Assembly: GCA_015064945.1 (NCBI GenBank)
Contig: SVRF01000006.1
Location: forward strand, 4,074-68,073
Direction of reading: 5' to 3'
Length of the DNA: 64,000 nucleotides
DNA from: Oscillospiraceae bacterium
GTDB taxonomy: Bacteria > Bacillota > Clostridia > Oscillospirales > CAG-382
The notes beneath the pieces are model-generated. The model did no database searches. It was not told the DNA's origin and worked only from the letters and a program-made list of their open reading frames with translations. A program made the position numbers and the translations under genes. Below, in pieces: positions 23,430-23,701 of the stretch. Position 1 is the stretch's first letter. Every line of letters starts with the position of its first letter.

Positions 23430-23701
23430 AAGGAGTTGCCGTTTGGCAACTCCTCAGACCGCTGACAAAGGCACAGACCACGAAAAAAGGAAAAATCAAT
23501 TACACATAAAGATGAAAATTCAGGGCGCACCCCTGAATTTTCTGCATTGCGTTGTTTTTTTCGTTCAAAACGAACCTCGGCTCACAGTACCTATGTACAG
23601 TTCTCGCCTCGGTTTGTCTTGTCTGCGCTCTTTCTCAGCAGTCTGCCGAGCTGATGACAAGTTTGTCATCAGCTTGAAGGAGTTGCCGTTTGGCAACTCC
23701 T
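23430..23701 (-). mobile_element. MITE-like non-coding element, copy 2 (inverted): 222-bp core 23455-23676 flanked by 25-bp hairpin direct repeats (23430-23454 and 23677-23701)
   Basis: AAGGAGTTGCCGTTTGGCAACTCCT is present on both sides. The core is the reverse complement of 9393-9615 with about 20 differences. Confidence 0.6.

Follow-up and report, generated by a model that had tools for sequence, protein, structure and literature searches.

A probable IS1182-family MITE inserted into terminator hairpins at pnp and a histidine kinase gene of an Oscillospiraceae bacterium

Introduction

What is the sequence of about 220 nt that separates the stem of the pnp terminator from its T-tract in this Oscillospiraceae genome, and how did it come to be bracketed by two identical hairpins? 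The window analysed here, a stretch of 64,000 nt from contig SVRF01000006.1, holds two copies of it, and an earlier note on the same DNA had proposed that it either is or encodes a structured RNA or DNA. The repeat is very probably a non-autonomous DNA transposon (MITE) of the IS1182 family, and it is best read as an element with hairpins that function in transposition and in the termination of transcripts rather than as an RNA gene. As such it adds a clear-cut case to a behaviour that is already known, if little studied, and does not represent a new kind of RNA gene. To our knowledge, hairpin targeting by IS1182 elements is documented in a few genome papers only.

The pnp locus and its inserted element

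The copy at pnp (copy 2) occupies positions 23455..23676 of the window (222 nt; E=1e-64 in an nhmmer search against the family profile) and reads CAAGCTG…GGTCTG on the minus strand, on which all features of this locus lie. It sits between the stop codon of pnp (polynucleotide phosphorylase, 23716..25806; Pfam RNase_PH, PNPase, KH and S1), whose terminator was the target, and the promoter of a lipoprotein gene 3' of pnp (22753..23337; start MKLFRILALMLVLSLSLGIFAGC; lipobox MKLF…FAGC), an ORF for which no Pfam match was obtained. The promoter, a near-consensus sigma-70 site at 23389..23417 (TTGACT-17-TATAAT with an upstream TG, 11/12 consensus positions), is host DNA outside the element and is kept at the orthologous locus L114. 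On both sides the element is flanked by AAGGAGTTGCCGTTTGGCAACTCCT, a perfect direct repeat of 25 nt that forms a complete hairpin. The pnp-proximal hairpin, a target-site duplication at 23677..23701, runs straight into the element and has no T-tract. The distal one (23430-23454) is followed by the original T-tract (TTTTTGTG) and with it makes up a regenerated pnp terminator at 23422..23454, identified by the terminator scan and by its match to the empty site of loci L116 and L117. The order proposed earlier for the minus strand (pnp stop, hairpin, element, hairpin, lipoprotein promoter) is borne out, as is the idea of a discrete element inserted between terminator stem and U-tract with duplication of the hairpin.

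Within copy 2, the left end is a terminal hairpin designated X (CAAGCTGATGAC-AAAC-TTGTCATCAGCTCG; 23647..23676; helix 1), the outer arm of which is the functional left end. It is followed by an inner inverted repeat (CAGACTGCTGAGAAAG…; 23622..23645) that is the partner of the right end in helix 2 of the consensus fold, and by an imperfect long internal palindrome (23567..23621; helices 3 and 4 of the covariation analysis) with the GTAC mini-hairpin inside it. An internal intrinsic terminator (GAAAATTCAGGGGTGCGCCCTGAATTTTC, then ATCTTT; 23514..23542) was found in the terminator scan, and its A-tract/hairpin/T-tract form makes it bidirectional. The right end and inverted repeat, …GTGCCTTTGTCAGCGGTCTG, lies at 23455..23478 and has CAGACCGCTGACAAAG as its reverse complement.

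Copy 1 (9393..9615, plus strand, 223 nt) lies in the terminator of a histidine kinase (HK) gene, the ORF of which occupies 9655-11142 on the minus strand, and is reversed relative to HK transcription. It is flanked on the plus strand by a perfect 26-nt repeat at 9367..9392 (left; the one that carries the T-tract on the minus strand in the terminator scan) and 9616..9641 (right, HK-proximal). This repeat is again a hairpin, and the two flanking hairpins are unrelated in sequence, as the earlier note had observed; it was also right that the two copies lie in opposite orientations relative to the terminators that they interrupt. That they are inverted copies of each other was established by a repeat search, which returned the arms 9388-9513/23556-23681 and 9509-9616/23454-23561 at 92-93% complementarity, and a MAFFT alignment agrees. 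For a right-end 18-mer the window has exactly two occurrences, where 0.02 would be expected. The copies differ by 13 substitutions and 3 gap columns (92.9% identity), or at 17 columns of the family alignment; an earlier hand count of 19-20 differences was thus slightly too high for the 16-17 measured. A left-part remnant of a further family member (21959..22032, minus strand; profile positions 31-76; nhmmer E=3e-5) is followed by a terminator hairpin.

A family of elements that duplicates terminator hairpins

The element belongs to a family of more than 100 copies in MAGs of ruminant-gut Clostridia/Ruminococcaceae, and its right-end 21-mer matches at least 106 stretches in about 10 MAGs. Family copies are 222-226 nt long and 69-86% identical to the window copy. 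A hairpin duplication of 20-35 nt, with a different hairpin each time, flanks 36 of the 53 complete copies and is perfect at 27 of these 36. The perfect duplications end 0-2 nt (mostly 0-1) outside the foot of the stem, usually with equal offsets on both sides. Any intrinsic-terminator stem of 7-15 bp can serve as target, without a sequence consensus. The right flank opens with a hairpin at 106/108 copies according to a lenient detector that 47% of random positions also pass, and this hairpin is followed by at least four T within the next 8 nt at 90/108; the argument for a hairpin target rests on stem lengths (8-14 bp) and exact duplications and not on the pass rate of the detector. The flanking genes are convergent at 22 copies and divergent at one, and tandem pairs divide 12:6 between elements in forward and reversed orientation. 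A strong orientation bias, which T-tracts after 83% of right flanks had seemed to indicate, was dropped, because the targets are for the most part terminators that work in both directions and lie between convergent genes.

The pnp locus provides an orthologous empty site. In L116 and L117, which encode a 96% identical protein, pnp is followed by a single AAGGAGTTGCGATTTTGCAGCTCCTT and then TTTGT, at the very spot where the window and L114 carry hairpin-element-hairpin; the elements of the window and of L114 belong to different subfamilies there, which may reflect independent insertions or gene conversion. Analogous comparisons of L003 with the window and of L020 with L019 gave nothing clean. 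The element is mobile, and the hairpin that it enters is duplicated whole, down to the foot of the stem. Unrelated hairpins occur on the two sides of about 10 of the 53 complete copies, which may reflect recombination or two-site events. The short forms L022 and L041, whose duplications extend into the T-tract and whose left ends lie at the apex of an internal palindrome, are not accounted for by a simple insertion model.

The link to IS1182 and the missing transposase

The MITE has the termini CA…CTG. The reverse complement of its right end, CAGACCGCTGACAAAG, agrees at 15/16 positions with the IS1182-family left end CAGACTGCTGACAAAG, and the inner repeat matches the left end of a real IS1182-family IS equally well (15/16). 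For the outer arm of hairpin X the agreement with IS1182-family ends is 13-15/16; in variant B the outer left end, CAGCTTGATGACAAAC, matches the reverse complement of the right end of another IS, CAGATTGATGACAAAC, at 15/16. Compared with ISCbo5 the terminal 16-mers of the MITE agree at 11-13/16, and with related IS1182 elements at 15/16.

ISCbo5 itself was recovered on plasmid p3BKT015925 through its 30-nt direct repeat. Its transposase scores 472 bits against NCBIfam NF033551 (IS1182) and contains Pfam DUF772 and DDE_Tnp_1_6, domains that are also present in the transposases of the comparison IS elements. Homologues of this transposase (61-70% identical) are encoded by elements with CAG…CTG termini and a left-end hairpin, flanked by direct repeats of 14-26 nt, most of which, though not all, are clean hairpins. 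Seven of the IS1182-family loci L123-L134 carry a hairpin direct repeat, and some real IS1182 copies likewise have different hairpins on their two sides. The left-end hairpins of real IS1182 elements differ in their stems (GCTGTTGA, CTGCTGAC, GCTGATGAC and CCGCTGAC), and the terminal hairpin of the MITE is a feature of IS1182-family transposon ends. Hairpin X had also been considered as the fossil of a target duplication left by an ancestral insertion, an idea that was dropped as real IS1182 left ends bear like hairpins.

A search of five IS1182 loci with the MITE profile (nhmmer) revealed no homology past the terminal ~16 nt, and either the parent IS is not among the elements sampled or the interior of the MITE is unrelated to it. 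No transposase homologue was detected by tblastn with an IS1182 transposase as query in ~0.7 Mb around the copies plus the window, the MITE-bearing MAGs being read as 8-kb pieces around the copies, and none was seen when the ORFs of the window were read by eye. An all-against-all comparison of ORFs at the copy loci returned orthologues only, with no multi-copy ORF or transposase, and the pairs of end motifs spaced 0.6-4 kb apart in 106 loci were all neighbouring MITEs, without an autonomous parent among them. Locus L005 was examined as a candidate IS and rejected: its last 33 nt alone match, and it is a remnant beside small ORFs. Searches further afield gave chance matches in PLSDB plasmids and INPHARED phages (blastn, E 0.3 or worse), no element in a viral-contig scan, and in a metagenome scan four matches, all of them chance, on GC-rich contigs and mostly within coding sequence. 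Since no transposase was found near any copy, the element is regarded as a non-autonomous MITE, presumably mobilised in trans.

Comparison with known systems

For ISCbo5, a member of the IS1182 family, the published termini are cag…ctg, and each direct repeat is an entire hairpin at the end of a gene (PMC3098183, Table S3). The ISCbo5/ISCno1/ISBma2-like IS of C. botulinum group III and C. novyi-NT (Skarin et al. 2011, PMC3098183) resemble the MITE in their CAG…CTG termini, in their gene-end hairpin targets and in a direct repeat that comprises the whole hairpin (20-44 nt); these repeats usually start with A and end with T. As in the MITE, the left end of such IS folds as a hairpin. Unlike them, the MITE is 222 nt long and devoid of a transposase gene, its interior is unrelated to the sampled IS, and it possesses an extra inner inverted repeat beside the terminal hairpin as well as the internal bidirectional terminator; its hosts are uncultured ruminant-gut Ruminococcaceae/Clostridia known from MAGs.

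A second IS1182-family system, IS1272/TnSha1 of staphylococci, inserts at the base of terminator hairpins confirmed by RNA-seq, in both orientations (Furi et al. 2016, PMC4923244). It has in common with the MITE this structure-specific targeting of terminators at the hairpin base, the indifference to orientation and to sequence consensus, and the ability to use one hairpin as a target repeatedly. However, IS1272 deletes or replaces the stem-loop without duplication, whereas the MITE duplicates it entirely, which is the outcome predicted for a cruciform attacked by the 3' ends at its 5' feet (Wan et al. 2017, PMC5678879, Fig. 13 pathway b). In Paracoccus yeei, MITEPye1 (PMC11578231) also has IS1182-like inverted repeats and is presumed to be trans-mobilised, but it makes 4-bp direct repeats and is present in 1-3 copies per chromosome, in contrast to the hairpin-length duplications and many copies per genome seen here; no annotated IS1182 element was found on P. 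yeei pTT13-3 or in the first 50 kb of pYEE3. Insertion directly 3' of intrinsic-terminator stem-loops, described as a safe haven, is on record for group IIC introns (PMC1702495), which share the insertion site with the MITE but, as ribozyme/RT retroelements, measure at least 700 nt and insert in an orientation-specific manner and without duplication. A group IIC intron was rejected as an explanation of the present element on account of its 222 nt, its long duplication and the lack of a group II match in Rfam. Correia, RUP, BOX and ERIC elements are small gene-less intergenic elements that are co-transcribed, fold strongly and can alter transcript ends; unlike the MITE they generate short fixed duplications (e.g. 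TA) or none, and are not known to target or duplicate terminator hairpins.

Conserved helices and the case for an RNA

The earlier note had suggested that an alignment of many copies be examined for covariation. With 46 copies aligned, 98.3% of cells in the family fold are paired and double changes occur at 21 pairs, against 12.3±1.8 in shuffled and 3-8 in slid controls. The covariation is centred on the terminal hairpin, helix 3 and the internal terminator. Helix 1 has compensatory changes at 3 pairs in 22-23 of the 46 copies, the internal palindrome (helices 3/4) underwent a triple compensatory change from CAA/TTG to TGG/CCA in 4 copies, and the internal terminator is the strongest covarying helix, with 11/13 pairs covarying across the family. 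The long-range helix, with a double change at 1/20 pairs, is simply the inverted repeats. The possibility that the internal terminator is a captured target hairpin was entertained and abandoned, since its variants are homologous and convert into one another by compensatory changes. Relative to shuffled sequence, folding is much stronger on both strands (z = -12 and -11), and the CAAG→GGTCTG strand has several fixed G·U pairs. Three differences previously picked out between the window copies are real in the family alignment, namely a G-C pair of the internal terminator that has changed on both sides to T-A, the change confined to the loop of the GTAC mini-hairpin, and a T·G wobble turned into C-G, of which there are two. 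The broader assertion that substitutions preserve the helices holds for the family of 46 copies, with its covariation; the two window copies taken alone are weak evidence for it, since copy 2 breaks two pairs (A·C at columns 2/30 and 63/106) and 11 of the differences fall in unpaired columns.

The double changes, the folding of both strands and the fixed G·U pairs could also be read as signs of RNA selection on a functional structured RNA, be it an sRNA or a 3'-UTR cassette for stabilisation or termination, for which transposition would be no more than the means of spread, and the conservation of the pnp site adds to this case: in a comparison of the window with L114, the element's left half (91%) outconserves the 3' end of pnp (89%), and the downstream intergenic DNA is 66% identical. 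We consider it improbable that this is the primary nature of the element. The covarying helices have ordinary explanations in an IS1182-end hairpin, a bidirectional terminator and inverted repeats, and conservation can stem from recent spread or gene conversion; two copies from one genome are more alike than two copies from orthologous sites. Rfam at gathering thresholds reported two tRNAs and nothing else in the window, and a search of the locus with E-values up to 10 produced no match (best E=2.6). In addition, the promoter scan detected no sigma-70-like site inside either window copy, and copies point either way relative to transcription, so that no single RNA strand would be consistently expressed. 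The idea that the repeat itself is a structured RNA, or codes for one, has accordingly given way to the MITE reading.

A model for insertion and its competitors

The MITE most likely moves as follows. An IS1182-type DDE transposase, supplied in trans, would bind both ends of the element, 5'-CA[A/G]…TGA[C/T]AAA within the terminal hairpin on the left and …TTTGTCAGCGGTCTG-3' on the right, and would join them to the two target strands at both 5' feet of an intrinsic-terminator stem. The target palindrome would most likely be extruded as a cruciform that brings the feet side by side in a four-way-junction-like arrangement, a geometry that we infer solely from where the duplications end. Filling of both single-stranded gaps by repair would then copy the entire stem-loop and yield hairpin–element–hairpin–T-tract. 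On the distal side the host terminator is regenerated, and the element brings a bidirectional terminator of its own; together these would render insertion nearly neutral in either orientation, which in turn may explain why the family accumulates at gene ends. The gene-proximal hairpins do lack a T-tract, as stated in the earlier note, and a terminator is predicted within the element. Read-through into the element is therefore plausible, and pnp transcripts probably pass the first hairpin, devoid of its U-tract, and end at the internal or at the regenerated terminator.

The pairing of the terminal hairpin, retained by compensatory changes in MITEs and IS1182 ends alike, and the duplications that end at stem feet invite a more speculative generalisation, namely that IS1182-clade transposases are structure-specific enzymes that read extruded hairpins at the donor end as well as in the target and work on a cruciform much like a resolvase on a four-way junction, and that the internal helices of the MITE constitute a host-selected module for bidirectional termination or RNA stability. 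We put this forward tentatively, as possible rather than probable.

Two other forms of mobility deserve consideration. The duplication length varies (20-35 nt), the family includes 5'-truncated copies with an intact right end, and two truncated copies keep long duplications, all of which is compatible with SINE-type target-primed reverse transcription or with Cas1/casposase-like integration; in CRISPR spacer integration and casposons, staggered attacks by Cas1 on either side of a palindromic repeat, of similar length in CRISPR adaptation, duplicate that repeat. Nevertheless, such an origin is very unlikely. The length of the duplication tracks each hairpin to the foot of its stem, in contrast to the fixed repeat length that a ruler sets in Cas1 systems and to the product of random nicks, and the inverted-repeat ends match those of DDE-transposase IS1182 elements at 15/16, real members of which make like duplications. 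A bias towards 5' truncation was rejected as an artefact of the search anchored at the right end, all the more so as the window itself contains a left-part remnant, and no RT or Cas1 gene was seen. Scarcely any weight attaches to the notion of a REP/BIME- or integron-attC-like palindrome, moved as a single-stranded hairpin by an HUH enzyme (RAYT or IS200-IS605) or a tyrosine recombinase, even though the element is hairpin-rich and extragenic, lies at gene ends and has a subterminal hairpin at one end. HUH and tyrosine-recombinase systems make no target duplications, site-specific recombination needs a common core while each copy here has a different hairpin, and neither RAYT nor TnpA-Y1 was seen; the size of 222 nt and the inverted-repeat ends of IS1182 type speak against REP/BIME as well, and the reading is largely refuted by the results obtained.

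Significance

A review table (PMC6199540) gives the mechanism of IS1182-family transposition as 'unknown'. The MITE family amounts to dozens of independent natural insertions, which define the target rule sharply: the joints lie at most 2 nt (mostly 0-1) from the stem feet, the whole hairpin is duplicated and the terminator is regenerated. The same set of insertions offers ready substrates for tests of cruciform-directed transposition. In the annotation of genomes, terminator hairpins that occur twice, on either side of a gene-end repeat of ~220 nt in gut Clostridia, are transposon scars and not regulatory RNAs. At the level of the host, the insertions would endow pnp and the kinase operon with longer, highly structured 3' UTRs, and effects at the RNA level, on mRNA stability for example, are possible for both.

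Two terminators interrupted by copies of one element

Copy 2 of the element, behind pnp (window 23455-23676), and copy 1, behind a histidine kinase gene (9393-9615), are reverse complements of each other: a repeat search of the window gave two abutting inverted arms with 92-93% complementarity, and in MAFFT the copies align end to end. The inverted copy reported in the earlier note is thus real, while its count of 19-20 differences was slightly high, since the pairwise alignment gives 92.9% identity with 13 substitutions and 3 gap columns. The right-end 18-mer occurs in the window at these two copies only, with 0.02 occurrences expected. 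As had been claimed, the sequence bracketing copy 2 is a perfect direct repeat of 25 nt that forms a hairpin of its own; at copy 1 it is a perfect 26-nt hairpin repeat of unrelated sequence. The gene context was also read correctly and comprises a PNPase ORF (23716-25806, minus strand), a histidine kinase ORF (9655-11142, minus strand) and, downstream of pnp, an ORF that begins with the lipoprotein signal MKLFRILALMLVLSLSLGIFAGC and is preceded by a promoter matching at 11/12 positions (TTGACT-17-TATAAT with an upstream TG). A terminator scan bore out the loss of the U-tract that had been noted: at both copies the T-tract is gone from the gene-nearest hairpin and retained by the far one. Public records give a Ruminococcaceae MAG as the origin of the window's PNPase.

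The pnp terminators of close relatives were fetched and aligned, and they provide direct evidence of insertion with duplication of a stem-loop. Two orthologous loci (L116 and L117, 96% protein identity) carry a single hairpin, AAGGAGTTGCGATTTTGCAGCTCCTT, followed directly by TTTGT, whereas the window and locus L114 (98%) have hairpin, element, hairpin and T-tract at the same point. A further relative (L119, 92%) has another terminator after pnp, and in L118 (94%) the hairpin is followed by a 33-nt palindrome made of the element's end sequence. The hairpin duplicates of L114 (3604-3880) are set apart by one compensatory G→T / C→A pair. Its element belongs to a different subfamily, being 82.5% identical to the copy at the 23430-23701 locus of the window, with identity falling to 73% over the right half, as against 92.9% between the two window copies. 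This points to a hairpin struck twice independently or to homogenisation of copies within genomes (gene conversion), and differing subfamilies at the pnp site of close relatives are among the features that the insertion model leaves unexplained. The gene content downstream of pnp differs as well, so the region has been rearranged between close relatives: the window has two tandem paralogous lipoprotein genes (22023-22727 and 22753-23337, minus strand) with similar C-terminal halves, and L116, L117 and L119 have other genes (DUF3842, ECF transporter).

A family that targets intrinsic terminators

A 21-mer from the right end matches at least 106 stretches, among the matches listed, in about 10 MAGs of Clostridia/Eubacteriales, whose gut sources include goat caecum and sheep rectum. 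Members of this gene-less family, apparently a new and undescribed MITE family of uncultured gut Clostridia, share 69-86% identity with the window copy and come in sizes of about 140, 222-226, about 260 and about 304 nt; many lie at contig ends, as is usual for repeats. Both flanks are readable at 53 complete copies, 36 of which are flanked by a 20-35 nt duplication that is perfect in 27 cases, and what is duplicated is another hairpin at every one of the 36. At about 7 further copies the flanking hairpins differ merely by small loop indels, and at about 10 the hairpins on the two sides are unrelated. The 27 perfect duplications end 0-2 nt (mostly 0-1) outside the stem foot whatever the stem length, usually at an equal distance at both ends. 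Nearly all right flanks consist of a hairpin with an 8-14 bp stem and then a T-run, and the neighbouring genes converge at 22 copies, run in tandem with the element forward at 12 and with it reversed at 6, and diverge at 1, which identifies the targets as intrinsic terminators, often bidirectional, that are used in both orientations; the two window copies already represent both.

Insertion takes place between stem and T-tract in either orientation, the whole stem-loop is duplicated with its boundaries at the stem feet, and a terminator is regenerated distally, the element having an internal one of its own. The target palindrome is probably present as a cruciform, whose adjacent stem feet would make the duplication as long as the palindrome; gap repair would then copy the hairpin after joining. 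At pnp the first hairpin precedes CAAGC… instead of U's, and transcripts most likely pass it; they would stop either about 165 nt further on, where the internal terminator lies, or at the regenerated one, so acquiring a highly structured 3' UTR.

A simple foot-of-stem model does not account for two short forms, L022 (136 nt) and L041 (142 nt), whose left ends fall at the apex of the internal palindrome (…GTACTGTGAGCC) and whose duplications of 28 and 35 nt, respectively, comprise a hairpin and 7-12 nt of T-tract. Equally unexplained are solo 33-nt palindromes, CAGACCGCTGACAAAG-ATAAAA-GTCAGCGGTCT, found in L118 (3626-3658, in the orthologous pnp terminator) and in another MAG locus, L027 (4197-4229). 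They consist of the element or IS end sequence and its complement, share their loop sequence, separate a terminator hairpin from its T-tract with no duplication of the hairpin, and resemble the isolated left-end hairpin of IS1182 elements. Unrelated hairpins on the two sides were seen at L016, L031, L052, L091, L075, L079, L106 and others, and at the IS copies L126, L129, L131 and L134; the right hairpin of L052 is the left hairpin of L091. Such mismatches are consistent with recombination between copies or with two ends attacking separate terminators.

Conserved hairpins and their likely role

The earlier note had proposed that substitutions between the copies preserve helices and that the element is, or encodes, a structured RNA or DNA. 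Of the 17 columns that differ between the window copies, 11 are unpaired; the six paired ones comprise two single wobble to Watson-Crick changes, two that form one compensatory pair and two that break pairs, so that the two copies alone do not carry the inference. It does hold for the family. The RNAalifold consensus of 46 full-length copies has 76 pairs, with 98.3% of cells paired, and 21 pairs show double-sided changes against 12.3±1.8 in 500 shuffles (21 being reached in none) and 3-8 when partner columns are slid by 1-3. Covariation is located in three places. In the terminal hairpin at the left end three pairs switch jointly in 22-23 copies (CAAGCTG…CAGCTTG vs CAGCTTG…CAAGCTG), with additional compensations each in a single lineage; in helix 3, CAA/TTG becomes TGG/CCA in 4 copies; and in the internal hairpin 11 of 13 pairs covary. 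This last hairpin always lies between an A-run and a T-run, as bidirectional intrinsic terminators do, and the scan called it as a terminator in both window copies. The long-range helix, formed by the inverted repeats, has 1 double change in 20 pairs.

Reading this structure as that of an RNA gene fares less well. The element has no match in Rfam and neither window copy contains a promoter-like site, folding is about as strong for one strand as for the other (z = -12 and -11), and real IS1182 left ends retain the same terminal hairpin with differing stems. Together these observations point to hairpins that serve a DNA-level role in transposition, or that block read-through transcription.

A non-autonomous relative of IS1182

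This kind of element is already known from the IS1182 family, some of whose members target terminator hairpins and duplicate them. IS1272 and TnSha1 of that family insert at the base of terminator hairpins, in both orientations and with no sequence consensus, and delete the hairpin (PMC4923244, PMC5678879), whereas the MITE family duplicates it whole. Table S3 of the ISCbo5 paper lists cag/ctg termini and, for most copies, direct repeats 20-44 nt long that are hairpins in nearly every case, for example aaggatgctacttcgtagcatcctt (PMC3098183). We located ISCbo5 on plasmid p3BKT015925 via its 30-nt direct repeat; its 454-aa ORF scores 472 bits (cut-off 270) against NCBIfam NF033551, 'IS1182 family transposase', and contains the Pfam domains DUF772 and DDE_Tnp_1_6.

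Three homologues, 61-70% identical to this transposase, were fetched with their flanks. Their left end, CAGACTGCTGACAAAG or CAGGCTGTTGACAAAG, is immediately followed by its own complement to give a terminal hairpin, with a T-run after it in elements of the P0236/P0239 type; their right ends read …GTTTGTCATCAATCTG or …CGTCAGTAACCTG. Their direct repeats of 14-26 nt are mostly clean hairpins, and some copies have different hairpins on the two sides. The MITE right end, as reverse complement CAGACCGCTGACAAAG, and the inner repeat next to the terminal hairpin, CAGACTGCTGAGAAAG, each match the same IS left end at 15/16 positions, and the outer left end (variant B), CAGCTTGATGACAAAC, matches the reverse complement of an IS right end equally well (15/16). 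Past the termini no MITE-IS homology is detectable, and no IS1182 transposase was found in the window or in roughly 0.7 Mb of MITE-bearing DNA. The matching ends and the lack of a nearby transposase identify the element as a non-autonomous IS1182-family member whose parent IS lies outside the sampled set. The family's main value is as a rich natural data set on a poorly understood transposition mechanism.

Other repeats in the window

Two tandem, distantly related elements occupy 126-289 and about 302-431 (both minus strand). They match the nhmmer profile of the family over positions 55-205 (E=7e-11), have a homologous internal terminator (AGAAACAGGGG…CCCCTGTTTCT) but a different right end, and share a 58-nt direct repeat (96-153 and 302-359, 93% identical), which suggests that such elements form a wider superfamily in this genome. 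At 21959-22032 (minus strand) the left part of the element survives as a remnant, CTGCTGAGAAAAAGGTGCAGACAGGACGAACCCAGACGAG (profile positions 31-76, E=3e-5), which can be regarded as a third, decayed copy; it follows closely after the second lipoprotein gene and precedes a terminator hairpin. A second dispersed repeat unrelated to the MITE, GGGGTCCCCGGGAAGCCGTTAGACTTCGTGGGGTG and variants, is present at 51736-51779, with two tRNA genes (51949-52159) about 170 nt away, and recurs in L019, L045, L049, L056, L064, L082, L084, L087, L106 and other MAG loci. Finally, at 41421-41523 an imperfect palindrome of 50 nt, which has A- and T-runs and its centre at AAAGCGACGGGATTCTCCCGTCGCTTT, resembles a vacant bidirectional terminator of the type that the MITE targets.
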